Shown one piece after another: positions 4,863 to 57,233 of a stretch of DNA of 57,233 nt (position 1 is its first letter; the number at the start of each line of letters is the position of its first letter). The notes beneath the pieces are model-generated. The model was not told the DNA's origin and searched no databases. It was given only the letters and a program-made list of their open reading frames with translations. The stretch lies in NCBI GenBank assembly GCA_032718475.1, contig JAUCBJ010007024.1:1-57233 (forward strand), written 5' to 3'. Both the position numbers and the translations under genes were made by a program. This DNA is from Nemertoderma westbladi (lineage: Eukaryota > Animalia > Xenacoelomorpha).

Positions 4863-5562
4863 TGTTGCGGGATAAATCCATTAATAATGTAATTATTGAT
4901 AAGGGCATGCATGACGGGCTTTAGCTTGTTTGGATTGAAGCGAAGGGACCATCAGAGAGGGATATTGGTGTAAATTGTTGGGAGAGCGTCTGGTTATTGA
5001 GTGTGAGAGAGAGAGAGAGAGAGAGGGAATCTGTATTGAGCTGTGATGGTTAGATTGCAATGGCGCGAGGTGAGTGGTAATTAAAAGGTCGGGTGAAGGG
5101 CAATGTAATAGTAAGCTGAGGGGGGAACCTGTTACCGTGTAGAAACAAGCCAATAAAAATAGCTTCCTGGTTGACACGGTAGGGAGTGCCTTATTGCTAG
5201 AAAAGTTTGGTTAACCAATCAGGATGCAATATAGATAGATAGAAAAATCCAATCTTGTTTTATATACGAACAATATATTATTTATGATGTAAATTAATTA
5301 GGACAGAATCCCCGAGAGGATACAATGATTTGTAATGGGGCCCTTTGGCAAAAAAACCGATTAGCATCCTGTTTGGTTTCCCATAATTAAATATATTATT
5401 TACCGGTGAATTATTAGTACATATTATTAACTGAAATAACTAAAAAGGAAGAAGAAGATAAACTATCATTTTTCATAGTACGTAAATTATGGGACGAGCC
5501 TTACGGGCGGGTTTTCGGTCAAACCCATATACCGTGTAACCACTGAGGGGATTCCAGGAACA
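4863..5562 (+). repeat. E1 5' LTR (700 bp)
   Basis: TGTTGCGGG...CCAGGAACA, repeated at a constant offset of 7884. Confidence 0.97.
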
Positions 5563-5672
5563 AAATTACAAATCAATTATCCAAAAAAGAAGATGACCAA
5601 TAATTAACTAAGCTTAAGCCCTCCTTAATGAAAATAATGAAGAACAAATCGAGAGTAAATTAAAGTCGAAAT

Positions 5673-10394: not shown

Positions 10395-10412
10395 CAAGGA
10401 AAACCTGTTAAA

Positions 10413-11672
10413 ATGGACAGTCATCTACGGGCATTAAATCCTATATTAAAAGATGGGTTAATATGCCTTAATTCACGTCTAGGTAACGCACCATCAGGCA
10501 TAATACCAGCGTATCCAATAATTTTACCAAAAAATTCATTCGTAGTTGATCGGATTATTGGGGATGCCCACCAAAAGACTTTACACGGTGGTGTAGATGC
10601 CACATTGCAAAAAATCAGAAGGAACTTTTGGATCCCTGCAGTGAGAAAGAAAGTTAAAAGTCATGTAGAAAAATGTATGACTTGTCGCATGGTAAGGCGA
10701 CAACGAGTCCAACAAGTAATGTCACCACTACCACCAGAGAAAATAACGCCCTTCGAACCAGCATTTACTAATTCGGGGGTAGACTTATTTGGACCACTGA
10801 ACTGCAAAATAGGACGAAGGTTTGAGAAACGATGGGGTGCTATTTTTGTTTGTTATGCAACTCGAGCCATAGCACTAGAGATTGTGAAAAATGCCAGTGC
10901 GAGTGCCTTTATTAACGCACTTCGTAGATTTATATCCAGAGCTGGAAATGTGGTAAAATTGAGCTCAGATAATGGTACAAATTTTGTGGGAGCGAATGCA
11001 GAACTAAAGAAACTCTACCAGTGTGCCAGATCTAAGGAAGTTAGAGCAGTGGCCGAGAGGGAGGCAATCGAATGGAGGTTTCATACTCCTTATGCCCCGC
11101 ATTCGTCGGGTGTCTGGGAGAGGCTTATTCGTAGTTGCAAGCAGAGATTGGAGGCAGTCACCAAGAATAAGTGCTTAGAGGAGGACGACTTACGAACAAT
11201 ATTCTGCGAGGTAGAGGCAACTATGAATAATAGACCTTTATATCCAATGACAGACGACCCTACTTCTTATGACGTATTGACCCCTAGTCACCTCACATTT
11301 AAACAACCAGTAAGTGTGCTTAATAAGAACCTTTTTGAGGACAGTGACCAATATTCACGAAAAAGGTGGAAAGTTATACAAGAAATATCAAAATCATTTT
11401 GGAGAAAATGGGTGGAAGACTACCTCCCAACCTTACACCTTAGACATAAGTGGAGGGAAGAGCACCGCGATTTAAAACCTGGCGACCTAGTCATTGTTAG
11501 TGATGATACTTTGGCAAAGTATGACTGGGTTCTTGGCAGAGTACAAGAAAATTTGCCTGGATGCGATGGACACGTGCGTAGCGTTATTTTAAAGATACCT
11601 TTGGGCGGATTCAAAACAAAACTGGTGAAACGATCAGTTAGAAATTGCTGTCTCTTAGAAGAGTCAGCTTAA
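10413..11672 (+). CDS. E1 integrase (HHCC zinc finger and DDE core)
   Basis: H..TLHGG...CMTC, GVDLFGP, SDNGTNF, GVWERLIRS and a GPY/F-like tail. It is in the same frame as the upstream ORF, six codons after the TAA. Confidence 0.93.
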   Translation: MDSHLRALNPILKDGLICLNSRLGNAPSGIIPAYPIILPKNSFVVDRIIGDAHQKTLHGGVDATLQKIRRNFWIPAVRKKVKSHVEKCMTCRMVRRQRVQQVMSPLPPEKITPFEPAFTNSGVDLFGPLNCKIGRRFEKRWGAIFVCYATRAIALEIVKNASASAFINALRRFISRAGNVVKLSSDNGTNFVGANAELKKLYQCARSKEVRAVAEREAIEWRFHTPYAPHSSGVWERLIRSCKQRLEAVTKNKCLEEDDLRTIFCEVEATMNNRPLYPMTDDPTSYDVLTPSHLTFKQPVSVLNKNLFEDSDQYSRKRWKVIQEISKSFWRKWVEDYLPTLHLRHKWREEHRDLKPGDLVIVSDDTLAKYDWVLGRVQENLPGCDGHVRSVILKIPLGGFKTKLVKRSVRNCCLLEESA

Positions 11673-12746
11673 AAAACGAGACTGCATTGACTCGAAATAT
11701 AAGGGGGAGGATTACCGTTATAAAATTATATTTCTCACAATCGAAAATAGGTGTAAAATAAATAAATAAAAAAAAAAAAATAAAATAAAATAAAAAATAA
11801 ATAAATAAATCGTTTCGGAAAATATTATAATAATATGAAATATAGTAGTTAAATATAATAAAATTAAAATCGATTTATGTTTATTATCCAAAAATATTAA
11901 AAATATCAGTGTGTGTGATGATTATATGAGTGTATGATTGTGGTAAATGACGACGTGTTAAAGACCATTGACAACTGAAGAGGTGCACCTGACAAACACT
12001 GACGAACTTATGAATTTCTTGTCCAAATTGACAGGTAAGGATACGCGGGATATAGAGAGTTACGTAAGACCCATATTTTGTGGCTTCGTTGAGATACGAA
12101 GGGAACCTACACAATGTCTAGAAAAAGGGAGACGTCTCATTAGACATTGCGTGGGGGGGCAATACTTTACAGTAACCCACTGAAGGTATACGGGGGGAGC
12201 GGCGGTGACTCCTTCTAGTAGCCATTGAAACATATAACACTTGACATGGCAGGACTTAAATGACGAATAATGACGAAAAAATAGTTTAATTGATCGGATA
12301 AAAAATATAAATTGATTATAGCAAAAAGAATAAACCATGAAAATAAATAATTCTGGAATAATCACATAGAAATGTAACAATAATATGATTATGATAACAT
12401 AAAATTGAAATATATCGTTTAAGATGTATGTACTTAGGGATTTAATTTATGAAGATTTATAAGGAAAATTACTTTATACTGTAATAAGAAGTGAAAAATG
12501 TTATTTTTACTTTTTTTTTAAAGTAAATTAAAGTTTTTTTTTTTTTTTTCTTGGAAAATCAGACACATGTTAAAAGAGAATGAAGAGGTTTATTGAACCC
12601 GCTAAGACCCAGATACCACAAATCTGGTAGAGATCTGTTTTTTTTTTGGTTTATACATACATTCTAAGGATACATTACCTACAAAGGGATTTATGCCGCA
12701 AATTTATTCAGAAAGATTAGCAAGCTTATCTTTCTGGGGGGGAGTT

Positions 12747-13446
12747 TGTTGCGGGATAAATCCATTAATAATGTAATTATTGATAAGGGCATGCATGACG
12801 GGCTTTAGCTTGTTTGGATTGAAGCGAAGGGACCATCAGAGAGGGATATTGGTGTAAATTGTTGGGAGAGCGTCTGGTTATTGAGTGTGAGAGAGAGAGA
12901 GAGAGAGAGGGAATCTGTATTGAGCTGTGATGGTTAGATTGCAATGGCGCGAGGTGAGTGGTAATTAAAAGGTCGGGTGAAGGGCAATGTAATAGTAAGC
13001 TGAGGGGGGAACCTGTTACCGTGTAGAAACAAGCCAATAAAAATAGCTTCCTGGTTGACACGGTAGGGAGTGCCTTATTGCTAGAAAAGTTTGGTTAACC
13101 AATCAGGATGCAATATAGATAGATAGAAAAATCCAATCTTGTTTTATATACGAACAATATATTATTTATGATGTAAATTAATTAGGACAGAATCCCCGAG
13201 AGGATACAATGATTTGTAATGGGGCCCTTTGGCAAAAAAACCGATTAGCATCCTGTTTGGTTTCCCATAATTAAATATATTATTTACCGGTGAATTATTA
13301 GTACATATTATTAACTGAAATAACTAAAAAGGAAGAAGAAGATAAACTATCATTTTTCATAGTACGTAAATTATGGGACGAGCCTTACGGGCGGGTTTTC
13401 GGTCAAACCCATATACCGTGTAACCACTGAGGGGATTCCAGGAACA
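12747..13446 (+). repeat. E1 3' LTR (700 bp)
   Basis: No differences from the 5' LTR seen by eye. Followed by the TSD GTCTA. Confidence 0.97.
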
Positions 13447-32433: not shown

Positions 32434-32609
32434 AATTAAGCTACATAAAATTAACTCTATTGAACTATGTGAAGCGTACTTCTTCTAGAGATATCTTTTA
32501 TATCCGTGTAATATCGTGGTGCCTATTCCACCATATTGGTCTGTAGTTTAGGTCTACAACCCATATGGGCGTTTATTATTTGTTTCGGTATTATATACCG
32601 AGTGGGGAG

Positions 32610-33116
32610 TGTACTATTCTTGGAGAATAGTTAGTTAGTCATCAAACTAGTACCCATTTAGAGTGTTTAACATTAGCTAGTTATTTTCTGCAGTACCTAT
32701 TTAGAGTGTTTTACAACATTACCTAGTTATTTCTACAGTACCTATTTAGAGTGTTTTACATTATTAGCTAGAGATTTCTACAGTACCTATTGGGAGTGTT
32801 TATGTTTGTTAGAGGTTTACATACCGGTACCCTATGACTGGGGAGACGGCTTTGGTGTAAGATACAAACTCGGTTGAAGGTAATGTTTTTTGAAACAGGT
32901 GTTAACCATAGTACATAGATTACAGTTATCTGTTGATGGTACCGGTAAAGCGCAGCAGTATGGTGTGTTATATTATAAAGAACAATGACTCCCGGTCTGC
33001 CGGTACCGCATGTTTATTATACAGCCTTATTCGATAGATTTCATTTTCCATCTCCACTCTCGGTTGACCGCCCAGGTTCGGGGACCGACGCCATTCATTC
33101 ATATTAGGTGCGCCGT
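32610..33116 (+). repeat. E2 middle (3') LTR, interrupted about 18 bp before its end by E3
   Basis: Matches the E2 LTR up to GGTGCGCCGT, after which E3 sequence begins. Confidence 0.92.
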
Positions 33117-33244
33117 GTATAGAATTATATTCCCTAAATGCCGTGGATTTTCAAAATTTTATTTTTATTCGAATTAACTTTGTAAAGATTGCTTTGAGTT
33201 CTCATTCGTATTTGTTCTATCATTTGAAAGCCTATTGGTCAAGT

Positions 33245-33331
33245 GGTTCAGTAGCTCAGTCGGTAGAGCGTTGGAAATTATATGTGTAGTAGGTATTGAG
33301 TTCGAATCCTAGTAAGTGCGAATTATTTTTT
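33245..33331 (+). ncRNA. tRNA-derived Pol III cassette in the E3 LTR (not a functional tRNA)
   Basis: A box/D-arm TAGCTCAGTCGGTAGAGC, B box GAGTTCGAATCC and a T6 terminator. The acceptor and anticodon stems do not pair. Confidence 0.8.
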
Positions 33332-33384
33332 GTGCAGAATTTCAACTCATTTAAATTGACCGCTACAAATTAATTGCATTTGTC

Positions 33385-33663
33385 TGTACCAATGAGACTG
33401 TAGTTATTTGATTGTAACCAATGTCGTGCAAGTTATACATTAGCTGGACCAATAGCTATCTTTAAAACCTTGTTAGAACCTATAGAACAATCGAGAATTT
33501 TCTCGATTGATTGCAGCACAAATTTAGTATATAAAGGTGCGATTTGTTCATTAGTTATCACTCTCTCATTACTCTAACCATATTCGTATCTCTGAGTTAT
33601 CTAATATTTGTTTATTCTGTCATTAGTATTCAGATTACATTTTGTGTTATTATCTGCAATAAA
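33385..33663 (+). promoter_or_regulatory. E3 LTR Pol II promoter and polyadenylation signal
   Basis: Three CCAAT boxes spaced about 30 bp apart (about 33389, 33417 and 33449), TATATAAA at 33528-33535 and AATAAA at 33658-33663. Confidence 0.6.
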
Positions 33664-35902
33664 TTCAGAAATACCGCTATCTGCCTTTCTTTTTACCATG
33701 GATTCACTACGGTGAACAAACCTAAGGGACAGGATGGCCGGCTAGAGATCGGGCCGCAGCAATGAACGGGAACATCACAGGAATGTAGACGAGAGACAAC
33801 CCGCAATACCATCTTGAGTTATTCGCCCATCGCCTGAAAGGTTAGACAGCGTTCGACGCCTTGCTACCTAAGAGTAAGACCAAAGATCAAAAAGGTAGAA
33901 GTAGTGACACGCTGTGAGCCTAAAATTACATCTTAGGGACTGTACTGTCTTGATTCAGGAAAAAACCACAGTAGACCTTCACATTCCTACGGGGGGAGAG
34001 AGAGAGCGCAGGCAGATACTAGTACGCAGATAGGACGTAGGCACACCGGTACGAAGCATACAAATTGGTAGGGTGCAGCAAACTGTACGCCTAACTCTTG
34101 CTAAGTACAGGTGTGTGTGCGACTATTTGTAGTACAACGGTGTCCATTGCATTAGAACTTGTAGGCTAGGGGGGTTGCTGTGTTTTCACCTGAATTGGGA
34201 TTGTACCGTTCAGGCGGTAGGGCAGTTTACAACTAGGCGCAAATAAATTGAGGCTATTAGGGATACTAACATCTACCGTGTCCCCGCCAACGCCCTAATA
34301 GGAAGTTACCCGGACTACCTGGGTGACTAAAATTCTAGATAGGAGCCAGGATAGCTATTAGTAACAGTACGCCTACAGTAGTAAACTAACACATCTCTTC
34401 TTAGTATCAGGGACCTGGTACCTAAAATTGCCGAATTCTGGGCGTAGCATTAACCCTATGCCTGAATTTGAGTCCTGGAAATACGCAAGAGGGGAAGGAA
34501 CCTTATCATTCGTGAGTATTGGACCTACAAGTTACAAAATTAGAATATTCGTAAAATGCACACCGTACCCAGTAATTATATATGTGAAGGAGCAAAACTG
34601 TTTTTGACCGTTCAGAATTAACACACGCGCGTTAGAAATTATTTACACCTCAAAATATATAAAATTAACTTTTGTCCGTACTGTGCTTTGCCCGCTAGTT
34701 AGACATCTCCAAATCTCTGCCTGTGTACCTAGCTAGCGTCTCTTCGCCCAAACCATATAAATCACACCGCGGCAAAGTGTACGAGCCCCTTAGTCCGTCA
34801 GTGAGTCAGCCTGATTTTAGGATTCGCTGCGCGGGATTTTGTTTTATCGAAGTTTGTCTGCTCGTAGACTGTTTTCTGCCTCACCGGTTATAAGAGATCG
34901 ATACTGCAATATATTCGCTTACTTAGAGTTTACTGTTTTGGTGAGAAGGTCGGATTTATGATTTGATTTACAAACTTTACAGTAAGATATTGCAGGTATT
35001 GTTACCGTCTCTTCCAATAGTAGGAATGTGATTATTTTAACATATTTCCTAGAATAGTAGGAATGTGTGATTATTTTAACATATTTCCTAGAATAGTAGG
35101 AATGTGTTTTACTGAACTACGGTTCGGTAGGACTAAAGTTATTTGAAAATTTTGTATTTTGAGGTAAAAATTTATATTTGATTAGCTAAGTGCTAATTTT
35201 TGAAATAAAATTTGATTTGAACCGCGTGTAAAATATTTTTGGAATTGAATACCGGTGTTTAAAAGGGTTTAAATACCATATTGTACCGGTACAAAATTTT
35301 CGTAAAGTAAAACCTAACTCTTTTGTTTTTCAGGATTCAGAACTCATTTCTAGACTGTAACGGGAGCAAGACCGTGTTTAGCAAGTTTGGGAGATAGATA
35401 ACCCAACAACTTTGGTTGGGAAAATCGCGTTTCGTCCGCAACGTTAAAAACGGAAAGGTTCACGTCCGGTTTGTATCTGGGAATCTGTTTTTCTGGAGAA
35501 TTATTGGAGTGGGTGAGTTCGAAAAGTTGCATAAATAAGTTAGGCATTACCGTATTAGTTAAAATTATTGTGGGTTCCACTGTCTCAAGTATTTATGCAT
35601 TCCGTATGATTTCTTTGTTCATTGCTGAATTAGTCCGTATTATTGTATTTAATTTACCTTTTGATAACGCATATCGTTATCCGATTTATTTGTTATAAAA
35701 TTGGCCGCTAGGCTAATTTTATTATATACTTATTCCGTGACATTTATTTGCTGTAAAATTGGCCGTTTAGGCTAATTTTATCCATCTGCTATAAAATCGG
35801 CCGGTAGGCTAATTTTATATGACTGTAATTAGTACCGTTTAGATATAAATACGGTAAACTCGATACTTTGACACTCACTTTACTTGACTTACAACTACCG
35901 AA

Positions 35903-38900
35903 ATGAGTGACAAACAAGACTATACGAAGAATACACAAACCGACTATGACTCATGTGACGCGGATAAGTCAGCAGCGGAAGAACAACAGGGGAAGACTCG
36001 CGAGCCTACCGAACCTACACCGTGTGCGTCACCAGTACATCCAACGGGAGTACCGGATGCCGTAGTACGAGGCGACGGCAGGACCGAGGACTTTCTAACT
36101 GTTCCGCAACCTAGATACAGGGAAACGGAGATGGTAAGTTCAGTAGGAAGCCAGGAGAGCGTAGTTAGAAGCGTCGGCGGTTACATGGCGCATATTACCA
36201 GGAGTATTGGAGAAGGCCAACGCATATTAGACGAGTTAACCGCTCCGATGTCTCGGTTCGAGTTCTACACTCTACAGGTGAGAGTACAGAGTAAAGTATA
36301 TAAGTCCGTAGATAACCTAATTGGTCTACAAGATCTAGCTAGACAGAGACAGGATATGGACACTCAGCTTAGAATCCTCGAGAAACTAATGATCACTAGA
36401 GAGAAACTGATTCAGTTTAAGTCGACGATTAGGCAGATACAACAGGAACAAGCGGACCAGTTATTAGGTGAGTCGGTTTCGGACGAATTATTGCAACCCG
36501 AGGAAGAACAGGAACTGTACAGGCTAGATGGACAATTGAAACACCTGACGGATCACTTACGCATGTGCGGTGAGGACGTCGGAGATTGGGAAACCGTGCC
36601 GGAGGCTACGAGGGAAACTTCACTCGCACAAATCGAACTGGCACCGGGAACACTAAATCAATCACTGGTGAGTATTCGCAGCGAAATTGGCGAGGTGAGT
36701 ATGGCTACGTCAGAAATTGCTCGACAACAGCAGCTCTACAGACAACAACAGGAGATGGAGGAACAAACTGAACTGCTAATGGCACAAGCAGCAGTACAAG
36801 AAGAGAAACTACGTGTTGCGAATGTTGCAAGAATCTCTCATCTGCAAGAACAAGCCGAGTTGGAAGCAGCCGAGATGGAAAGATTAGAGTTGGACATTGC
36901 ACAACAGGCAGCGGCAGCGGCAGCGGCAGCGTCCGAGTTAGAGCGAAAAAGGTTAGCTTCAGAAGCGAGAACCGAAATGAAAAAACGGCAAATAAAGGCT
37001 CAATCAGCTATACGACAAGCGGAGTTCGAGGCGCAACAACAACAGACGGAACAACGCGAGAAGGAAGTTAAACTTCATTTCGAACTCGGGAAGAAGGCGA
37101 GAGAATTAGCCAACGCGAAGGAAGATCTGGATCTACAAGCCCGCGATCGATCGATGAGATCTCGTGACGGACATGATTTGGACCAGTTAGAGGTAAGGCA
37201 CCGTCAAATTCAGGAACGAATGAAGGAAGGAAGTGTAGGGGCACCTGGGCGAGAAAGACAACTAGTAAAGGACTTATGTCAAAGATTCCCTCGAGTAACT
37301 CCTATGTTTGCACCAGTTACGATTAAGGAACCTATTTCGATTGCTGGTAGTAGTAATATTTCTCCTATCCATGGTGCGACGGAACACAGGTTTGTTATTC
37401 CGGACAAGTTTACACCGCCAAGAGCAACGTCGTCGCCTATTCCGAAAGTCAAGGTAAGTAACCCGCCGATTACAGATCGTAGTAGTTTGTTGACCAGACC
37501 TGCACTACTGACGACTAAACAGGTGAGTTCACCTTCGACACCAAAACTCGTTACGCACTACACGTACCCAATGACGTTTAGGCCTACAAAGCCTTTGGAT
37601 TCAAACGCTGTAGTCCGACCACCGGTTCAGTTTACATCGCAATCTACGACTTCGAGGAAGACTTGTGAGCCTACCGAACAACGGAGACCAGTGGATACGC
37701 GACCGTTCAACCAGTTTACATCGCAATCTACGACTTCGAGGAAGACTTGTGAGCCTACCGAACAACGGAAACCAGTAGACGATGTTCCGAGACGGAATGT
37801 TAGGATTCGAACGGCGGAACGGACTCGAGCACGTCGACCACCGTATCCAGGTGACAGTAGTACTTCGAGCGAGTCGGATTACCCGGAACGCGAGGTATTT
37901 AGAACAGGAGCGGCCGACAAATGTAAACGTGAGCGTTCGGATAATTCATTTATCGACAATCCTCCACAGAATACGCCAACACAAAAGGCGTTACAACCAA
38001 CAGACGCGATCAGTACACAACAATTCGCCGACATTCTGCGACCAGTTGTCAATAAGTTGGCCCAGATTGAGGAACGCTTGGAGGAAGTTGAAACCGATAG
38101 TTCGAGGAACACCGAACTTGAACACAATAGCCACCCGAAGGATCCGCAAAGACCAATACCTTCGAGAAACACTTCTTATCAAGAAAAAGCGCCAAGAAGG
38201 GAGAACATCAACCAGGTTGCCAACCAAGGACGCGAAACTTTGAACGTGGCCGAGGAAATAGCGAAATTCGCAGCTAGACAAGGATTGCCGGTACAACAAC
38301 CACTGAAGTTTTCCGGTAGCTCAAAACACTGGCATACTTTCATAGACTATATCGAATCTCAGATCGCCGTGTGCGCCTTTACATCACGGGAGAAGTTTAA
38401 TTACCTGCTTCAAACGTTGTCAGGAGAACCTAAACGTTTGGCGGAGACCTTCGTTGGTGTACCGGACGCTTTCGAACTAGCGTACGATCGTTTGACCTCG
38501 ATCTACGGAGGCACAGTCAGTATGGCCAGGTCAGTAATAGAGGAACTCGGTAAGGGAGGGGCTATCACTAAACCCGTCGACTTATTAAAACTGGCCGACG
38601 AGATAAAGAACGCTATCACTACTTTAAGATCCATTGGACAACTCGACTACGGGAATACCCCTACAGTCCTATTAAAGATCATAGGACGACTCCACCATCG
38701 ACTTCGTCGGGAGTGGAGAAAGATCGAATACCAGCGGGAAGAGCGGGGTGGATTCTTAAAACTAGAGGATGTGTACCTTTTGATATCCAGGGAAGCAGTT
38801 GTAGAAACACGATCCAACTACACTGACCAGCACATCGTAGCAGAAGGGATCACCTTGCCATCCTCCAACCGACAAAAACCCCAGACAACATCCACTAAGA

Positions 38901-41900
38901 CGGCCACTTACGCCACACCGACGGAATCACGACAATTCTCGGACGGTAGTAGGGTATCTGCGCCCATTGGGACAAAACAGACGAGACAACAACTCAGTAC
39001 CGACTTCAGCGGCTGCCAATACTGCGAGCATTTAGGCAAGCGGTATATCGGTCACAAGTTGCGAGGTTGTCGACAATTTCGCGAGTTAAACTCGGAAGAA
39101 CGACGGCTGCAAATACGGCCATTGGACTCTTGTAGGCGGTGTACGCGACACGGACACATCCGTAAAGATTGCCCAAATACCGACACTTGTCCATCCTGTG
39201 GACGCAACCACGACGGTCTGCTCCACACAGACAGCCACACGCCGACAAAACGCTTCGCCAGGGAACACCCGGAAGCAGCAGCGAGATGTGATGCGGCCTA
39301 CAGAAAACGAGAATCGAAAACGACTCCAACCTTCGTGACCCATATTGAGGATTGCTTCTCAGAACAATCCGGATCGTCGGACGAAGAATCAGAAGACGAC
39401 GACGTATATTCGGATGGAGATGAACAGCCATCGATCGCGCTTCTGACTACTGACCAACTGAAGGGATTCAGTGTAATTCCGATTAAGATTACTGGCACAA
39501 AGGGAAGCAAGAGAATCTACGCGATTCTAGATTCAGCCTCATCTCACAGCTACGTGGATGAAAAGATAGCTGACGTAGTGACGGATCTTAAACAAGGTAA
39601 GCGCGTCAGTTATACCGTAAGTAGTATGCACGGACAGCGTGCAATACCAGTGACACGAGTTAAGTTGGACTTAGACTCTCTTCTTCCAAAATCGCAACAC
39701 AGCGAGAGGGAGAGGTCTTTGTTACCCTTTAAAGATCTAACCTTTGCGGCCACGAAGGACTTTAGTAACCTACTAGGTCCAGTGCCGGAACAATCTCTAG
39801 AGGACCGTAAGTATTTCAGACACCTTGGTGTACCCGAATGTCCTGTCAATTATAGATCGGTAGCCATGCTGATCGGGACAGACCAATTCAACCTACATCA
39901 GGTGTGGGAAACCAGACCATCGGCAGTTGTAGCGGGAAACGCATACGCCTGTAGAACGCCGATAGGGTGGTATACTCGAGCGCCTGTGCGCACATTAGAC
40001 ATAAGTGACGAGGAAGATGTACAAAGTACATGTAGTTTATTAACTACAAATTCAATTCATTCCTTCTCACACGACGTGGACCATACTACCTTACAGACAA
40101 AACACAACAGACGTGTAACTAGTATGATAAGTCACAAGGAGCAGCTAATTCACCAGGTGAGTTTAGAACTTGGGAAGAAGGCGAGTCAGCCAGAGATTCC
40201 ATCGACGACAGATGATAACGCCGGAAGACTTGCGAGCCTTTCTACACCAGACATATCGCCAGACGGTCAACCAGACACGTTACTAGACAGCCAACCAGAC
40301 ATTTTGCCAGACATATCACAAAATGTTCTACCAGACACTAGTGACATATTGACAAACAGTAAAGCCGCAGTTTCTCTATTGGAGCGGCCTTCTATTGACA
40401 AACAACCAGATACGTTACCAGACGTATCGCCAGACACATTACTAGACAGTCGACTAGACACTAGTAACGTACTGACAAATAGTGAAGCCGCTGTTTCCCT
40501 ATTGGAGCGGCCTTGTATTGACAAACTACCAATTTTGACACACTTGAGCAACCATAAGCACGGTGAAACCTCATGTATTACAGATGTGGGTAGTACCTAC
40601 GCTAATGTAAATACAGGTGTTACTCTGCGCTCAAGAGACATACCGAACTTGCAACCTACGGTGAGACCTGGGATTAATGTCGGCAGAAAAATAAGTTTAC
40701 CGAAACCTGCTGACCCCATAGAGTTCAAACCACCATTAACGATCGACTTACAAAGTACCGACAATCAAGGTAAGAAGACGAAGAAGGACAAATTACTTGT
40801 AGACCCGGACGGATCAACAGTCAACAAGGGAATACTTACCGGCGGACCCGTGGGCCCTTCTAGTAATTCAAAACCTTCCAAAATCTCCATTGACTTACCT
40901 GATGACGTCACAAATACTCACGTCGACCGGATTGTAAACTTAACAGACTCTTGGTCAAACGCTTGCCGAAAGTTAGCGTGGATTGTACGTTTTGTACAAT
41001 ACGTTAAAGGCAAACGCGACTTTACACGTCGACTTACATTGGCTGAGATTGACAGGTGTGAGATTAAATTAATTCGCCATTACCAACTGCGATATTTCGC
41101 GCGCGAATTCACATCTATAAATCAAGGTCAACCAATCAAGTCGTCACCAATACTGAGTTGGAGTCCGATTATTTATAATGGCTTAATTTGTCATAAATCT
41201 CGGCTTCAAAACATTGACTTTAACACAAACTTTAGGTACCCAATAATAATACCGCAACATCACGAACTACAACGTGCAATGATACTGGACGCACATTTAC
41301 ATCTGAAACACGCTGGAAGACACCACTGTCTTTCCTACTTACGTACAAGATTTGTATTAATTAGACCCAGTAAAGCGTTAAGTTCAGTGACACGTACGTG
41401 TATTATTTGTAAAAAGGTACATTCTAGAATAGGTACCCAAGAAATGAGTGAACTACCACAAGCACGACTTCAAGCATTCAGACCACCTTTTACAGAGACT
41501 GGAATTGATTGCTTTGGTCCCATACATACGAAACGTGGACGTATACTAGTAAAACGCTGGGGACTGATTTTCACATGTATGTCCAGTAGGGCAGTTCACA
41601 TTGAACGTGTGATGGATCTTTCCACCAACGCGTTTATACTAGCACTGCGGCGATTTATCGCTAGACGCGGACTAGTGAAATGCTTGTACTCAGACCAAGG
41701 GACAAACTTTGTTGGTGCTCGAAATGAGATTGCTAGAGCCTTTAAGAAATTAGATCATGATCAAATCTCGAACGAACTACAACCTCACAAGATTGTTTGG
41801 AAGTTTAATCCTCCAGATAGTCCATGGAGAGGCGGAGTCTGGGAGAGATTGATTAGATCTATAAAGACGGCAATGGCAAAGGTCATTCCAGTAAACCACA

Positions 41901-42430
41901 TATTGACAGACGACCAACTGACAACACTGTTTGTTGAAATCGAGGCAATACTAAATACTAGACCAATAGTATTAGTACCCGATGACAAACAATCTCAGTT
42001 TGCTTTGACACCGGCACACCTGCTTATGCAGGCACCGTCTACATTAATACCTATTTCAATTCCAACAGAAAGCGATAGCTATGGTAGAAAAGCGTGGAAA
42101 ATCACGCAACTACTAGCTAACAAATTCTGGGAAATATGGCAAAACCATTATTTGCCCTCTATTTCTGCCAGAACAAACTGGTACAATAACACCCGCGCAT
42201 TAAAGCCGGGAGATCACGTGCTGTTAGCAGAAGTGAATCTAAAAAGACGCTTCTGGATAACAGGTGTAATTCTAGCCACACATCCATCTATGGATGGAGT
42301 GACAAGAACTGTGACAGTACGGACAATTGACGGTCGTACAGTAGACAGACCGACTCAACGTCTCGTACTTCTTGAAGAGACTCGTAACGAGTCTGGAGAC
42401 TACAAATCTCCACCTAATACTAGTAAATAA
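35903..42430 (+). CDS. E3 Gag-protease-integrase polyprotein (2175 aa), with no RT or RNase H
   Basis: Coiled-coil N-terminus, gag FSGSSKHW..F and YLLQTLSGEP, three Cys/His knuckles, protease YAILDSAS..TPIGW, a low-complexity spacer of about 310 aa, then H..LKHAG..CIIC, GIDCFGP, SDQGTNF and GVWERLIRS. No YxDD, QGP, DAS or PRLEL motifs. Confidence 0.93.
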   Translation: MSDKQDYTKNTQTDYDSCDADKSAAEEQQGKTREPTEPTPCASPVHPTGVPDAVVRGDGRTEDFLTVPQPRYRETEMVSSVGSQESVVRSVGGYMAHITRSIGEGQRILDELTAPMSRFEFYTLQVRVQSKVYKSVDNLIGLQDLARQRQDMDTQLRILEKLMITREKLIQFKSTIRQIQQEQADQLLGESVSDELLQPEEEQELYRLDGQLKHLTDHLRMCGEDVGDWETVPEATRETSLAQIELAPGTLNQSLVSIRSEIGEVSMATSEIARQQQLYRQQQEMEEQTELLMAQAAVQEEKLRVANVARISHLQEQAELEAAEMERLELDIAQQAAAAAAAASELERKRLASEARTEMKKRQIKAQSAIRQAEFEAQQQQTEQREKEVKLHFELGKKARELANAKEDLDLQARDRSMRSRDGHDLDQLEVRHRQIQERMKEGSVGAPGRERQLVKDLCQRFPRVTPMFAPVTIKEPISIAGSSNISPIHGATEHRFVIPDKFTPPRATSSPIPKVKVSNPPITDRSSLLTRPALLTTKQVSSPSTPKLVTHYTYPMTFRPTKPLDSNAVVRPPVQFTSQSTTSRKTCEPTEQRRPVDTRPFNQFTSQSTTSRKTCEPTEQRKPVDDVPRRNVRIRTAERTRARRPPYPGDSSTSSESDYPEREVFRTGAADKCKRERSDNSFIDNPPQNTPTQKALQPTDAISTQQFADILRPVVNKLAQIEERLEEVETDSSRNTELEHNSHPKDPQRPIPSRNTSYQEKAPRRENINQVANQGRETLNVAEEIAKFAARQGLPVQQPLKFSGSSKHWHTFIDYIESQIAVCAFTSREKFNYLLQTLSGEPKRLAETFVGVPDAFELAYDRLTSIYGGTVSMARSVIEELGKGGAITKPVDLLKLADEIKNAITTLRSIGQLDYGNTPTVLLKIIGRLHHRLRREWRKIEYQREERGGFLKLEDVYLLISREAVVETRSNYTDQHIVAEGITLPSSNRQKPQTTSTKTATYATPTESRQFSDGSRVSAPIGTKQTRQQLSTDFSGCQYCEHLGKRYIGHKLRGCRQFRELNSEERRLQIRPLDSCRRCTRHGHIRKDCPNTDTCPSCGRNHDGLLHTDSHTPTKRFAREHPEAAARCDAAYRKRESKTTPTFVTHIEDCFSEQSGSSDEESEDDDVYSDGDEQPSIALLTTDQLKGFSVIPIKITGTKGSKRIYAILDSASSHSYVDEKIADVVTDLKQGKRVSYTVSSMHGQRAIPVTRVKLDLDSLLPKSQHSERERSLLPFKDLTFAATKDFSNLLGPVPEQSLEDRKYFRHLGVPECPVNYRSVAMLIGTDQFNLHQVWETRPSAVVAGNAYACRTPIGWYTRAPVRTLDISDEEDVQSTCSLLTTNSIHSFSHDVDHTTLQTKHNRRVTSMISHKEQLIHQVSLELGKKASQPEIPSTTDDNAGRLASLSTPDISPDGQPDTLLDSQPDILPDISQNVLPDTSDILTNSKAAVSLLERPSIDKQPDTLPDVSPDTLLDSRLDTSNVLTNSEAAVSLLERPCIDKLPILTHLSNHKHGETSCITDVGSTYANVNTGVTLRSRDIPNLQPTVRPGINVGRKISLPKPADPIEFKPPLTIDLQSTDNQGKKTKKDKLLVDPDGSTVNKGILTGGPVGPSSNSKPSKISIDLPDDVTNTHVDRIVNLTDSWSNACRKLAWIVRFVQYVKGKRDFTRRLTLAEIDRCEIKLIRHYQLRYFAREFTSINQGQPIKSSPILSWSPIIYNGLICHKSRLQNIDFNTNFRYPIIIPQHHELQRAMILDAHLHLKHAGRHHCLSYLRTRFVLIRPSKALSSVTRTCIICKKVHSRIGTQEMSELPQARLQAFRPPFTETGIDCFGPIHTKRGRILVKRWGLIFTCMSSRAVHIERVMDLSTNAFILALRRFIARRGLVKCLYSDQGTNFVGARNEIARAFKKLDHDQISNELQPHKIVWKFNPPDSPWRGGVWERLIRSIKTAMAKVIPVNHILTDDQLTTLFVEIEAILNTRPIVLVPDDKQSQFALTPAHLLMQAPSTLIPISIPTESDSYGRKAWKITQLLANKFWEIWQNHYLPSISARTNWYNNTRALKPGDHVLLAEVNLKRRFWITGVILATHPSMDGVTRTVTVRTIDGRTVDRPTQRLVLLEETRNESGDYKSPPNTSK

Positions 42431-43092
42431 TTAGGAGTTTACAAATAGATTTCCACGTACCTGTACACTGTAGTAAGGACAGCGGTAGAATTCCATTGTC
42501 TTTATATGTGAACATTGAGGGTAGTACCCTTATGTGTCACATAGGAGCGGGATTTGTAGGTATAAGAAATGGAATTCTACTTGGAACTCACAATATTGAG
42601 ACATTTTCGAAATTTTAGACAATCCATTTGGATTTGAAAAATTTTTAAAATTTTCTCCAGTGAATAGATTTCAGGGTACAGTCGGGTGGAACTTAAAATT
42701 AGAGAAACAAGAGAGGAAGACTTGCGAGCCTTTCTTAAAATTTTAATTAAATTTTACACGGTCTTGTTTCAATAAGTTACGTCAAATAATAGACTCCCCT
42801 ATATTTATTACTAATTCTTGACTGCTTATTTTCTGATAATAGTTTGGGATCAAAAAGTGAGTATTTTAGACTCACAGCCAGTTTAGCCCAAATTCGTTTT
42901 TTATTTCGGCAAAAAATTTTAGATAAGAAGCAGCGTGTCATTAAAGAAACCTTAGATCTTAGGCTATGGGTAGGAGGTTAGAGCGTTGTCGAGCCAAAAG
43001 GGCAGACGAAACTCTCACGTCTCCTCACAACTAACTACAAACTCTGTTGTATTCCCTCTAGTAGCAATGATTATGTAACTACACCTCTAATT

Positions 43093-44830
43093 ATGGAGAA
43101 AGGGATACAAGGAGAGCCGAGATGGGGATATGATATCCAAGAGGAGGCAGCAGCGCCATTCGAAAGATTTGGAGCCAAGGACTACACTATATTCGGTATA
43201 AAGGAATTATCGGAAAGTACAGCGAAACTCGCAAAGACTAAATATGACAACCCTTCTACAACTCCGACGCTCAGTGTAATGCCTTTACTCGAGCAGGATT
43301 TAGTATATTTCGAGACGTGTATCTTCGCTGTGCGGGATCTCTTATCGAAAGACCATCTATGTTTACATTGTTACCCTATGAAGGAGAACGTATCGTGGAG
43401 ATTACGGATGAATCACGGCAGACGCGCGCGCCTATCGGTCACCTTGGTGATGATTTCGAAGTAACTACTACGATCGCCGACGATCCTTTAGAGGAACTTC
43501 TTGAGATAAAAAGGAACCTCCCGAAGAAATCTCAGACGGAGATTCGACAACTTGAAGCAACAGATGATATAGTTTGTATACAACCTTCAGAAACCTACCA
43601 ACCCATAGACCCAGATGATTACGATTATAGTGTGGGAGGAAGCGCTCGACCGATTGGAGATCTTATATACGAACGAGTGTGGTACCCTGCCAATACGATG
43701 TGTAGTAAATGTGGCGTCGCTGGACATCATATGACAAAGTGCAGTGGAAAGCACATTACTACGACTCAGCTAATCTGTGGATGGTGTGGGGATCAAGGGT
43801 CTCATACCTTTTATACTTGCTGGAGATTTATGGCTCAATGTACTTACTGCAATATAAAGGGCATCGAGCATCTGAATGCCAACTAAGATATATACCTTAT
43901 GAACACGAATCTGTAAAACTCGTGAGGAAATTATTTGATGAGTGGGAAGATTTAGCCGACGAACATGTATCGGCACAAAGAAGACGGTTTCCGATGAGGG
44001 CGCATCTTGGATTTTGGGCGGTAAATCCCCAGACGATGATGTCGGAAGGATATATCTCCGCTATGCCCCAATATGACGAACTTATCGAGGTAGTCGATAT
44101 TTTGCCCCACGACAGCGGATTTCGAGTAGTGCGCGAGTATCTACTACAGATTCACCCGGATAACAAAAACACGTGGAATTTTCAGAAAGTCGTTAATCGC
44201 ATTACTTATGGTGAATTCGATCGTTTCCGAACTGAAAAATGGAATAAAGGAGCTTGGTTAACCGTCGCATGGGCGTACCGAGCCGCGTTTTACCATAAAC
44301 GTATACGAGCGAGCGTATTCGAGGAAGAAGAGGTCCTAGAGGCGACAAATATACCAGCCACTCCGGTTGCGCCGTCTGCACGTCACCCTCGGGAGGACGG
44401 ACAGGGTAGGATCATACGGGTCCAGAAAGTGGGCCAACAGTTAAAGAAGTCTATTAATATAGAAGAACGCAGGGGAGTTGAGCCGACCATTCGAGTTACT
44501 CGGGATACGGTATCGCTTCCTAGAGAACCAGTAGGAGGATCGGGACATACACCAGCTGATCAACAGGGGGCGCAAGCTACTCTTGGGTCTGCGTCGTCCG
44601 CTTCTCGCGCGTTCCCAGACGTTCTACCAACTGTAGTGACAACTGATCGGTCACGAGGAATCGGTCGAGGTTTTGGGATGCTAAATAGACGAATTTGCGA
44701 GGAAATGGTCGCACCGTCTCTCAACGTCCAAACGAAACCAGTGACTCGCCCCACGAGTCCCATATCGCGAGCAAAGTCACCTGTGCGCAGTTTTCGAGGA
44801 CGCGGCAGGGCTCGATCAACTAAGCGATAA
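43093..44830 (+). CDS. E3 accessory ORF of about 580 aa if two -1 frameshifts are bridged; three CCHC zinc knuckles and an RG-rich tail
   Basis: Three overlapping ORFs in successive -1 frames. Knuckles CSKCGVAGHHMTKC, CGWCGDQGSHTFYTC and CTYCNIK/GHRASEC, the third spanning a frameshift. An upstream CTAAC..polypyrimidine..TAG acceptor lies at 43031-43061. Confidence 0.7.
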
Positions 44831-45517: not shown

Positions 45518-47420
45518 GTATAGAATTATATTCCCTAAATGCCGTGGATTTTCAAAATTTTATTTTTATTCGAATTAACTTTGTAAAGATTGCTTTGAGT
45601 TCTCATTCGTATTTGTTCTATCATTTGAAAGACTATTGGTCAAGTGGTTCAGTAGCTCAGTCGGTAGAGCGTTGGAAATTATATGTGTAGTAGGTATTGA
45701 GTTCGAATCCTAGTAAGTGCGAATTATTTTTTGTGCAGAATTTCAACTCATTTAAATTGACCGCTACAAATTAATTGCATTTGTCTGTACCAATGAGACT
45801 GTAGTTATTTGATTGTAACCAATGTCGTGCAAGTTATATATTAGCTGGACCAATAGCTATCTTTAAAACCTTGTTAGAACCTATAGAACAATCGAGAATT
45901 TTCTCGATTGATTGCAGCACAAATTTAGTATATAAAGGTGCGATTTGTTCATTAGTTATCACTCTCTCATTACTCTAACCATATTCGTATCTCTGAGTTA
46001 TCTAATATTTGTTTATTCTGTCATTAGTATTCAGATTACATTTTGTGTTATTATCTGCAATAAATTCAGAAATACCGCTATCTGCCTTTCTTTTTACCAT
46101 GGATTCACTACGGTGAACAAACCTAAGGGACAGGATGGCCGGCTAGAGATCGGGCCGCAGCAATGAACGGGAACATCACAGGAATGTAGACGAGAGACAA
46201 CCCGCAATACCATCTTGAGTTATTCGCCCATCGCCTGAAAGGTTAGACAGCGTTCGACGCCTTGCTACCTAAGAGTAAGACCAAAGATCAAAAAGGTAGA
46301 AGTAGTGACACGCTGTGAGCCTAAAATTACATCTTAGGGACTGTACTGTCTTGATTCAGGAAAAAACCACAGTAGACCTTCACATTCCTACGGGGGGAGA
46401 GAGAGAGCGCAGGCAGATACTAGTACGCAGATAGGACGTAGGCACACCGGTACGAAGCATACAAATTGGTAGGGTGCAGCAAACTGTACGCCTAACTCTT
46501 GCTAAGTACAGGTGTGTGTGCGACTATTTGTAGTACAACGGTGTCCATTGCATTAGAACTTGTAGGCTAGGGGGGTTGCTGTGTTTTCACCTGAATTGGG
46601 ATTGTACCGTTCAGGCGGTAGGGCAGTTTACAACTAGGCGCAAATAAATTGAGGCTATTAGGGATACTAACATCTACCGTGTCCCCGCCAACGCCCTAAT
46701 AGGAAGTTACCCGGACTACCTGGGTGACTAAAATTCTAGATAGGAGCCAGGATAGCTATTAGTAACAGTACGCCTACAGTAGTAAACTAACACATCTCTT
46801 CTTAGTATCAGGGACCTGGTACCTAAAATTGCCGAATTCTGGGCGTAGCATTAACCCTATGCCTGAATTTGAGTCCTGGAAATACGCAAGAGGGGAAGGA
46901 ACCTTATCATTCGTGAGTATTGGACCTACAAGTTACAAAATTAGAATATTCGTAAAATGCACACCGTACCCAGTAATTATATATGTGAAGGAGCAAAACT
47001 GTTTTTGACCGTTCAGAATTAACACACGCGCGTTAGAAATTATTTACACCTCAAAATATATAAAATTAACTTTTGTCCGTACTGTGCTTTGCCCGCTAGT
47101 TAGACATCTCCAAATCTCTGCCTGTGTACCTAGCTAGCGTCTCTTCGCCCAAACCATATAAATCACACCGCGGCAAAGTGTACGAGCCCCTTAGTCCGTC
47201 AGTGAGTCAGCCTGATTTTAGGATTCGCTGCGCGGGATTTTGTTTTATCGAAGTTTGTCTGCTCGTAGACTGTTTTCTGCCTCACCGGTTATAAGAGATC
47301 GATACTGCAATATATTCGCTTACTTAGAGTTTACTGTTTTGGTGAGAAGGTCGGATTTATGATTTGATTTACAAACTTTACAGTAAGATATTGCAGGTAT
47401 TGTTACCGTCTCTTCCAATA
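45518..47420 (+). repeat. E3 3' LTR (possibly truncated at its right end)
   Basis: A near-identical copy of 33117-35019 that ends ...TTCCAATA and joins the E2 3' UTR with no TSD. Confidence 0.9.
45646..45732 (+). ncRNA. tRNA-derived Pol III cassette, 3' LTR copy
   Basis: Same A box, B box and T6 as 33245-33331. Confidence 0.8.
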
Positions 47421-48037
47421 TGGTGCCTATTCCACCATATTGGTCTGTAGTTTAGGTCTACAACCCATATGGGCGTTTCTTATTTGTTTCGGTATTATAT
47501 ACCGAGTGGGGAGTGTACTATTCTTGGAGAATAGTTAGTTAGTCATCAAACTAGTACCCATTTAGAGTGTTTAACATTAGCTAGTTATTTCTACAGTACC
47601 TATTTAGAGTGTCTTACAACATTAGCTAGTTATTTCTACAGTACCTATTTAGAGTGTTTTACATTATTAGCTAGAGATTTCTACAGTACCTATTGGGAGT
47701 GTTTATGTTTGTTAGAGGTTTACATACCGGTACCCTATGACTGGGGAGACGGCTTTGGTGTAAGATACAAACTCGGTTGAAGGAAATGTTTTTTAAAACA
47801 GGTGTTAACCATAGTACATAGATTACAGTTATCTGTTGATGGTACCGGTAAAGCGCAGCAGTATGGTGTGTTATATTATAAAGAACAATGACTCCCGGTC
47901 TGCCGGTACCGCATGTTTATTATACAGCCTTATTCGATAGATTTCATTTTCCATCTCCACTCTCGGTTGACCGCCCAGGTTCGGGGACCGACGCCATTCA
48001 TTCATATTAGGTGCGCCGTCGCCGCGACCCCAGGATA
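47421..48037 (+). mobile_element. Second E2-family 3' end (3' UTR, PPT and a complete 524-bp LTR at 47514-48037)
   Basis: Repeats 32517-33116 with several substitutions and continues to CCCCAGGATA. Confidence 0.92.
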
Positions 48038-55081: not shown

Positions 55082-55772
55082 AACCAAAGAACACAGGTTA
55101 TAGTCTTATTTTTGCAACCGGCTGATGGTTGGCCTACATACAGACCTACTGACCTACCAACCAGCCTATGGCTGTATGATACGGTAGCACTCTGCCTGTC
55201 TGCCGCTACTTAATGCAGTATTGACTTAGCTGATTCGGACATCGTATTGCTATGTATGGCCTATTTAATATCTAACCTAACTGCCTAACCAAAATACTAA
55301 ATCGCACTACCGATACCGAAGCACATACGGTAAGAACCCTACTGCCCTATAGGCCTAAGGTATAGCATGTATAGGATATAAAATATTTTTGTCTTTTTCT
55401 GCTTTTTGGGTAGGCCTAAGTTTTTTGGGTAATTCCAAATGTATTGTACAAATCTATTTTGGAGGACTAGAAATTAGCTTAATTTGTTTAGGCCTATTTT
55501 TATATTCTACAAATTAACGTGGCCTGGGCTGCTGCTGTGCTGGGCATGTGTGTTCGGGTGTTCCCTACTGATGACTGACCTTCTCAGCTACTGTTTACCG
55601 ATTACTGGTACCGGTACCCGTATACTGGTATATGATACTGGCCTATTTATAAATTTCCAATTTAATAGACAGATAGAGATTGAACATATGTACAAAATTA
55701 GGCCTACAACTGTAAAATGCTGATGCAGTTAGGACCTCAGCTAACATTCTAGGATAGATTGATAATCAGATA

Positions 55773-56802
55773 ATGGCAGCTGAAAAGGTGGAAATATCGG
55801 AAAGTTTATTTCCTGATTCATCCGTTAGCACGGACGACCGACCGTTGATGGATTCCTCTGAGACGAACAAACTCACGCAGTGTAGCGGATCGCATGATGT
55901 CCGCCAGAATCACGCCCGTTCCCAGACGTACGCGGGGGCCACGGATTCCGCTCCCAGGACTCGTCGGACTCCCCACATATCCACGGGATCCGATCCCGCC
56001 ACGGTTACCCCAGTCGTGGGAGAGCGTCGGCCCAGTCTACAGGAGAGGTTCTCTTTCCTCGATAAATTACTTCATCCTTGGAAGTGGAGGAGGAAGAAAA
56101 AAAGTAAAACTTTCGAAGAGAAACAAATGTCATTGGAGCGGAAGATTAGCGTTCGTGCAACTCGCGACGATTTGGTTAAAAAGGGAGTTCTGAGACCGGA
56201 GGAAGTTATTAGTGAGGATAACTCCCTCCCGAGTGACTGTAACGGGAAGAGTCCCACCGTGGGGGACACCCGTCTTACGGGCGTCCCGGAAACAGCCTGG
56301 ACCGGGGGCCAGCTGAACCACGCGTCTAAGAACGTCTCCTCCGGTGATAAATCCCCTCGGGGCGTTACCGGCCAAGGGAAAGGGGTCGGACGGACCGCTA
56401 AAGGGAACACGGTGCCATCCTCGCGAACAGCCACCTCCCGCGCCCCCCTGGACGCGGCGGCCACCCCCCGCCCCCTGAGCATCGGCCCTCCTCCCCGGAG
56501 TAACACCGGTCCAGCGGCCATCTCGCTGGGAGCCCTGATCCGCAGTCAGAGTCTCCCGGTTGCCAACTACCTGGGCGCTCGGGAGGCGACCCTGCAGCAC
56601 TCCCAGGAGGAGGCGCTCCCCGAGGAGCCGGACTCGCCCCCGCCCCCCTCGGTTCCGCCGCCTCCCATGGAGTACAACCCCCCGGAAGCCCCCTCAACCG
56701 ACCCCAGTAAGCGCTACTCCGGTAGCTACCCGGTCCCCGGAGATGGGCGGGTTCGTGTGCTGCTTCTACCGCAGTCGGACGCCCAGAAGTGGGAAACTCA
56801 AG
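55773..56802 (+). CDS. PHACTR: Phosphatase and actin regulator, first coding exon (the gene continues beyond the window)
   Basis: F..L..LLHPWKWRRKKKS..F....SLERKISVRATRDDLVKKGVL is the Phactr N-terminal NLS plus RPEL1, followed by a Pro-rich linker. Acceptor CTAACATTCTAG ends at 55752 and donor G|GTAAGT starts at 56803. Confidence 0.9.
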
Positions 56803-57233
56803 GTAAGTAGAATCCGACTAAATGTAGGTTAATCCGTAATCAGTACAGTAACCAACATTCCACAATCTTTGTTGCTTTGCATTGTTGGTTCCGTATGCGA
56901 TAAAGGATATTACTCGATATGATGTGCGGTGCAAATAATTTCGGGTACCAGTAATTCGGGATTATTTATCACAATTTTTTGTCATAATGAGGCCACCGCC
57001 TAAACATTCTTCTACATCTGTAAAAAAATAACACCAAATATTCACTTAATTCATAATGTTGCAGACGAATCGACTTGTGGATTGGTATTTGCTCCATAAC
57101 ATTGTTTGGTAGTTAACAAATAAATATAAATATATTTAATACACCACACGTTTCGAATATATTATTCGAAGATATTGGGATAGTAACAGAACCAGAACAA
57201 CCCACACAGCTAAAGAGTAATGTTAATTTTCAT

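Follow-up and report, generated by a model that had tools for sequence, protein, structure and literature searches.

A tRNA-gene-derived Pol III unit in the U3 of a coding BEL/Pao element that lacks reverse transcriptase

Why does a long terminal repeat (LTR) with a full Pol II promoter carry, shortly upstream of it, the boxes and the terminator of a Pol III gene? This question is raised by E3, a 12.4-kb element in the window (the whole stretch of 57,233 bp that was analysed), both LTRs of which hold a unit derived from a tRNA gene, with a unit-to-unit distance of 12401 bp. A first, sequence-only reading had proposed that the unit is an insulator for the LTR promoter or the source of a short Pol III RNA. 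Two questions follow. First, is the unit a fixed part of the LTR or a stray insertion? Second, are its boxes kept for a use? The tRNA-type Pol III unit in the U3 of this coding BEL element without reverse transcriptase (RT) is real and fixed in the family, and a function can be suggested for it by analogy with known systems.

Boxes, terminator and fold of the unit

The unit and its parts are located as follows.
33245..33331, + strand: tRNA-gene-derived unit in U3 of the 5′ LTR, with a tRNA-length body, a 5-nt trailer and a T6 terminator
33252..33263, + strand: A box TAGCTCAGTCGG, overlapping the intact D-stem (33254–33269)
33300..33309, + strand: B box core GTTCGAATCC, with a single mismatch to the 11-letter consensus, at 33299
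33326..33331, + strand: T6 Pol III terminator, without variant or indel at or above 3% in the DNA runs examined
45646..45732, + strand: second copy of the unit, in the 3′ LTR, identical to 33245–33331

The A and B boxes together keep 22 of 23 consensus letters; the consensus patterns are in line with those that Kojima quotes. In the 57-kb window the two units are the only places with a strict A+B pair (spacing of 25–70 nt), and neither the 100 dinucleotide shuffles of the window nor the 2000 shuffles of the repeat produced one. A loose box definition is unspecific, being satisfied in 61/100 window shuffles and 54/2000 repeat shuffles. When scored fuzzily, the unit has 1 mismatch across both boxes, and the rest of the window never reaches 2 or fewer. 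The 1903-bp repeats that contain the two units differ at 33231 and 33438 only, both of which are outside the unit. Near-consensus boxes with an oligo-T in both LTRs, about 130 bp from the LTR start and 5′ of a CCAAT/TATA cluster, had been claimed from the letters alone, and all these points are borne out, the distance to the LTR start being 128 nt.

The remains of the cloverleaf are uneven. All four pairs of the D-stem are Watson-Crick, whereas the T-stem retains two Watson-Crick and two GU pairs of five, and the acceptor stem one Watson-Crick and two GU pairs of seven. No anticodon arm could be formed in any register of the unit, and the stretch from the D arm to the T arm, by our own count, exceeds that of a class I tRNA by 3 nt. 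ARAGORN returned no tRNA on the unit region; with relaxed settings its first call appeared at threshold 89, in the wrong register and in one LTR only. The best Rfam match on 121 bases was indeed tRNA, with 13.1 bits (cut-off 29) and an E-value of 2.7 over model positions 1–42 only, and an Rfam search over 33000–36000 gave four chance matches, without tRNA. A functional tRNA gene is therefore rejected, given the lost acceptor and anticodon arms, the empty ARAGORN result and the Rfam score below cut-off. The stems had been described as decayed, which is correct for the acceptor stem and the anticodon arm but not for the D-stem.

Anatomy of the unit predicts a Pol III RNA of about 87 nt that would be unstructured. 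Its folding is at the level of shuffles (z of −0.03, with 89 of 200 shuffles folding as well; range −0.03 to −0.49), and because it folds no better than shuffles, the RNA is not a pre-miRNA. Could such an RNA nevertheless act in trans, for example as a tRNA decoy or as a ligand of a borrowed RT or of Gag? The cassettes of foamy viruses share the place and layout (U3, A and B box, terminator; PMC3993851, PMC7693620, in their accessible text), and the D hairpin is present in all three folds of the unit RNA. Yet the shuffle-level fold speaks against this idea, the T-stem pairs and, in one contig, the D-stem pairs are broken in other copies, and no more than 5 nt of the unit can pair with the 60 nt that follow the LTR; we regard a trans-acting RNA as improbable. 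The likeness to the foamy-virus cassettes (SFVagm, BFV) includes a coding element with a Pol II genome and the arrangement of A box, B box and terminator in the LTR, in U3 for BFV; as far as the same text goes, the difference is that their transcripts are stem-loops processed to miRNAs, whereas the E3 unit is derived from a tRNA gene. Having no match to the region behind the LTR, the unit is not a self-primer either. A 12-nt antisense match to it at 37801 was rejected, as it lies within coding sequence and was equalled in 10 of 300 shuffles.

Architecture and coding content of E3

The unit is embedded in an element with the following features.
33117..33718, + strand: inferred 5′ LTR of 602 bp, starting with GT, not TG, and ending with GAACA
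33389..33534, + strand: Pol II promoter-like cluster, with CCAAT at 33389, 33418 and 33449 and TATATAA at 33528
33658..33663, + strand: poly(A) signal AATAAA, within the putative R region
33719..35887, + strand: long 5′ leader without a canonical tRNA primer-binding site (PBS), its first 1.3 kb repeated at 46120–47420
35888..42430, + strand: open 2180-codon frame with BEL gag (DUF1759), zinc knuckles, protease motif, low-complexity linker and integrase (H2C2, DUF5641)
42982..44830, + strand: three overlapping accessory frames (160, 212 and 373 aa) after the integrase
45518..46119, + strand: inferred 3′ LTR
46120..47420, + strand: beginning of a second tandem unit, truncated within its leader

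The direct repeat of 1903 bp (33117–35019 and 45518–47420) is probably not a 1.9-kb LTR but a 602-bp LTR followed by 1.3 kb of 5′ leader, with the boundary inferred: the unit, the promoter, the AATAAA and the GAACA end all fall within the first 602 bp, and the GAACA end at 33718 resembles the ACA ends of E1 and E2, which lie in the same window. Other copies were compared in the DNA runs X1, X3 and X4 (with X5, four of seven runs), at the level of contigs and at an identity of at least 80%; X3 and X4 come from other studies under the same organism label, and X1 may be the source sample. One X1 contig passes from about 33700 through 23 letters to 33117, the depth in X4 is 7.9–40 thousand over 33081–33566 and at most 5.2 thousand over 33729–35024, and the depth in X1 and X3 continues beyond 35019. 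From this joint, this drop and this continuation, E3 is likely an LTR-internal-LTR element plus a truncated second leader. In the promoter cluster, three CCAAT about 30 nt apart and within 70 nt were matched by 7 of 20000 shuffles. No TGG-type PBS was found behind 33718, which is uninformative because the canonical PBS is missing in most BEL relatives with a clear LTR end.

Several observations concern the borders and the uneven preservation of this copy. The LTR appears to start with GT at both 33117 and 45518, and the letter before this GT is not the same across three junctions, two from the window and one from a contig. On either side of E3 stands a copy of a 600-bp stretch from the E2 3′ UTR and LTR (32517–33116 and 47421–48019) rather than a short target-site duplication (TSD), and the right end of E3 is a break within the leader. 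The flank copies differ at 7 of 600 positions, compared with 2 of 1903 for the element's own repeat (p=0.001), and the E2 5′ LTR agrees with the left copy at four and with the right copy at two of six sites. This pattern points to recombination, whether of alleles or of copies, or to a join made in the assembly. The break at 47420 coincides with the start of a tandem repeat of about 38–40 bp, which occupies 35015–35105 in the leader and varies in copy number among contigs. Over 33567–33728 (R-U5), depth falls more than tenfold in all DNA runs and loose ends cluster at 33691–33701, so the R-U5 of this copy is unlike that of most of the family, whereas its U3 is common.

The one-frame DUF1759 gag, the protease motif and the H2C2 integrase with DUF5641, together with the ACA end of the LTR, place E3 among the BEL/Pao elements (Belpaoviridae). 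It departs from them in the GT start of its LTR, in the accessory frames downstream and in having neither RT nor RNase H: the 2180-codon frame contains no [YF]xDD motif, and at the corresponding place there is a low-complexity linker of about 350 aa with internal repeats (40294–40531), for which Pfam gave no family at E up to 1 (39701–41098). When the RT-bearing frame of E2 was compared with the window, it matched E1 and E2 only, not E3. BEL frames of this sort are a minority: RT and RNase H domains are absent in 3 of the 120 homologues listed, and RT is present in 59 of 60 metagenome loci with at least 2.5 kb upstream of the integrase. Judged by its coding sequence, this copy of E3 is a non-autonomous BEL derivative.

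The integrases nearest to that of E3 are about 40% identical. Two homologues, P0051 and P0101, have at the RT/RNase H place what by eye are simple deletions, unlike the linker of E3. Of the accessory frames, the middle one has CCHC-like motifs (zf-CCHC_4, E 0.079) and the other two gave no Pfam family; none is env-like by Pfam. An Atlas search with the 373-aa frame found unnamed clusters only (0.81 and 0.75). Elsewhere in the window, E1 (4863–13446) is a BEL element with 700-bp LTRs that are 100% identical; a single stop directly follows its RT YVDD, and between this stop and the integrase frame the rest of RT and the RNase H seem to be missing. A host exon at 55758–56810 encodes an RPEL repeat (Pfam), as in phosphatase-and-actin regulators, and fits an animal host.

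The unit across copies of the family

Is the unit simply a recent SINE insertion in this copy, missing from most LTRs of the family? SINEs typically have a tRNA-derived head, and a few free copies may exist, as contigs that overlap a junction only very briefly may escape matching. However, the expected traces of an insertion are missing. There is no TSD around the unit, the best flanking repeat being 6 nt and equalled in 154 of 300 shuffles; there is no A-tail, nor any A6 run in the LTR; and behind the unit there is no SINE body or LINE-derived tail, as T6 follows 5 nt after the tRNA-length body. A short trailer with T6 is how a tRNA gene ends; SINEs are not built in this way.

The copies tell the same against a SINE. 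Contigs matching 33140–33440 numbered 610 in X1, 220 in X3 and 70 in X4, with 26, 22 and 7 fitting partially, and the share continuing into unlike sequence was 0, 0.01 and 0, respectively. Summed depth over the unit and over the downstream U3 was 159–244 and 156–260 thousand in X1, 117–160 and 61–138 thousand in X3, and 9–39 and 32–52 thousand in X4; contig depth is not copy number, and none of the three runs shows a spike over the unit. Among the joints listed none skips the unit (one contig joint skips 33164–33239, upstream of it), and among the 20 of 52 loose ends listed none lies at its ends. In all three runs the unit is covered jointly with the flanking U3. A contig of an 81%-identical relative spans the unit and the CCAAT region, with 54 differences over 33237–33514 and no gaps. 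At the level of contigs, then, the SINE with a TSD that the sequence-only reading had named as its own refutation is largely refuted itself, with no TSD, no A-tail and no sign of free copies, and we consider it very improbable. An exact-pattern scan of the metagenome contigs gave 0 stretches. One contig of X5, a run of about 6x depth that is only guessed to be RNA, spans the unit, and is not counted as expression.

The second question, whether the boxes are under selection, receives a weaker answer. Of the 21 sites with variation of at least 3%, the unit contains three (33261, 33297 and 33315), none of which touches a constrained box letter: 33261 is a free position of the A box, and the common variant at 33297 breaks a T-stem pair. 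By count, 0 of 17 constrained box letters are variable compared with 21 of 224 positions elsewhere (p=0.37). The unit as a whole is less variable than its two flanks (3/87 vs 18/154, p=0.03), a value that hinges on one divergent upstream block with non-independent sites, in which this copy stands apart from the others; with the downstream flank as the sole reference, the counts are 3/87 vs 6/79 (p=0.31). At a neutral divergence of 10–20%, the probability of at most one change in 18 box letters is 0.45–0.10. In one X4 contig the visible letters of the A box are kept and two of the four D-stem pairs are broken (by eye, n=1), and in some contigs the spacer is 3 nt shorter (by eye). The direction of the variation favours boxes over fold, and the numbers fall short of proof. 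A comparison of boxes with flanks across copies had been suggested as a check, and it does not find the boxes significantly better kept. An A-box-like motif further upstream, at 33236, was rejected, since its first letter differs across most of the depth in the DNA runs.

Because box conservation among copies is not significant, the unit may be a neutral passenger, namely a tRNA gene, a SINE head or a Helenus LTR caught once in an ancestral U3 and copied since without function. Other BEL LTRs manage without such a unit, and "not a few" LTRs in Repbase contain a tRNA part according to the accessible text of Kojima 2024 (PMC10886601). No free sibling turned up at an identity of at least 80%, which makes the capture look old; nevertheless the T6 and 22 of 23 consensus letters persist, and the relative with 81% identity still spans the unit free of gaps. 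We regard a passenger as unlikely, though a serious contender.

Possible role, known systems and other BEL loci

What, then, might the unit do? We tentatively propose, with doubt slightly outweighing belief, that a captured tRNA gene is retained as a TFIIIC/Pol III cis-element in U3. A tRNA gene, or a Helenus-type LTR, would have been captured once, long ago, in an ancestral LTR, and ordinary reverse transcription, by the RT of an autonomous BEL element, would have carried it into both LTRs. In this high-copy, RT-less BEL/Pao element the unit would bind TFIIIC and probably Pol III, with the 87-nt RNA as predicted product, and the bound unit may act in cis as a barrier or an enhancer on the Pol II promoter 60–200 bp downstream. 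The genomic RNA of E3 would be made by Pol II. From the unit of the 5′ LTR to the end of the second unit there are 60 runs of T4 or longer, 11 of T5 or longer and three of T6 in 12488 nt; Pol III is an unlikely source of the genomic RNA because the T6 and the 60 T4+ runs lie in its path and a Pol II promoter stands behind the unit.

Support for such a role comes, by analogy, from chromosomal tDNAs. In the accessible parts of the two sources, tDNA barriers require TFIIIC and Pol III (PMC2040200), and Pol III complexes change neighbouring Pol II transcription (PMC4228148). E3 shares with these systems the A and B boxes near a Pol II promoter; the effects were shown there for yeast chromosomal tDNAs and not for a mobile LTR, so that occupancy of the E3 unit is suggested by analogy, and an insulator is plausible on this ground. 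Further considerations speak against a cis-element. A complex on the unit of the 3′ LTR would be expected to obstruct Pol II before it reaches the poly(A) site. The unit is dispensable for BEL elements in general, the LTRs of E1 and E2 being without it. Finally, good boxes can come from a SINE or Helenus donor, and units are noticed only when their boxes are good. Of the sequence-only reading as a whole, the fixation in the LTR and the lack of SINE signs stand, and the weak points are the non-significant conservation of the boxes and the 3′ unit in the path of Pol II; the missing RT and RNase H of E3 had escaped that reading.

Cassandra had been cited as precedent for a small-RNA-gene promoter in an LTR, but Helenus, with tRNA-derived LTRs (2024), is closer. 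As described in the accessible text of PMC10886601, Helenus (TRIMp3) carries, like E3, a tRNA-derived sequence with A and B boxes in both LTRs, the fold being lost, and is a non-autonomous LTR element without self-priming that occurs in tandem arrays. By the same text it differs in being 311–1263 bp long and non-coding, with LTRs of at most 323 bp and a tRNA PBS, and in having 4-bp TSDs in animals, Gypsy partners and a Pol III that is proposed to make its template RNA. E3, in contrast, is 12.4 kb long, codes for a BEL/Pao gag, protease and integrase, has a full Pol II promoter behind the unit and contains Pol III terminators throughout the path. Failing in length, coding and PBS features, E3 resembles Helenus but is not a member. 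Cassandra and Ajax also have a Pol III promoter with terminator in the LTR and form LTR-internal-LTR tandem arrays; they differ from E3 in using a 5S rather than a tRNA promoter and in being short and non-coding (PMC10886601 and PMC7215508, as far as accessible).

Might the long element be merely the carrier of a Helenus-type device? The Pol III promoter could drive a short non-coding derivative with this LTR, or the first 219 bp could be a fused Helenus LTR. Helenus LTRs of at most 323 bp, with boxes without the fold and some with T4–T5 after the tRNA part (in the accessible part of the source), would fit 33117–33335, which measures 219 bp and ends in T6-GTGCA; by eye, 24 letters of 33252–33275 are common to one oyster Helenus LTR; U3 is much deeper than the leader in X4; and one contig joins 33838 to 35332. 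However, the T runs between the units would bar the long element from such use, the 20 of 52 loose ends listed include none at 33335, the 24 common letters are generic D-arm sequence, and motifs from the B-box flank and the LTR start have 0 matches in the Helenus supplement. This possibility seems to us distinctly improbable.

Small-RNA-gene promoters in LTRs have so far been described for tiny non-coding TRIMs, whose whole template RNA is attributed to Pol III. Length and terminators would rule out this role in E3; therefore the boxes, if selected, must serve otherwise. In that case E3, being mobile and present in many copies, would allow one to ask whether tDNAs bound by TFIIIC shield the Pol II promoter beside them, and E1 and E2 of the same window, which have no such unit, would serve as controls. 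If the boxes are unselected, the unit is an oddity in the evolution of LTRs, and one that gives rise to false calls of tRNA pseudogenes. More broadly, E3 might stand for a group of large BEL elements that are coding but RT-less and whose LTRs recruit two polymerases; in them the TFIIIC/Pol III unit, as a portable barrier or enhancer, would keep the Pol II promoter active in repeat-dense chromatin and may give an RNA that aids competition for borrowed RT; as a whole we think this rather unlikely.

The Repbase screen of Kojima, in its accessible text (PMC10886601), retained only elements below 1000 bp; since "not a few" LTRs there have tRNA-like pieces, larger cases may sit undescribed in Repbase. 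A literature search, reaching few subscription journals and with Repbase outside its scope, found in the text accessible to it no coding BEL element with a tRNA-derived LTR, and the accessible later literature mentioning Helenus added no coding case. How common is the design, then, among BEL loci? The LTRs of E1 and E2 have no B box. In 79 BEL loci from metagenomes, which come from the best 80 of 571 candidates and make up 64 clusters and 529 kb, an A+B pair with at most one mismatch was found in none, and with two mismatches in two, L056 and L066; as just 13 of the 79 gave paired LTRs of at least 150 bp, this control is thin. The pair in L066 sits inside a 430-codon frame and was set aside as chance. 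In L056, a BEL locus unrelated to E3, a tRNA-like A/B unit at 362–432 has T runs behind it and lies about 260–330 nt upstream of the apparent BEL LTR end near 688. This is a possible second case of the design, which may thus recur; the L056 unit may also be a flanking SINE, because the second LTR lies outside the contig. In three further loci (L001, L030 and L042), the 5′ LTR is followed within 3–4 nt of its end by a B-box-like GTTCGAAT instead of a TGG-type PBS, where a tRNA fragment may serve as primer.
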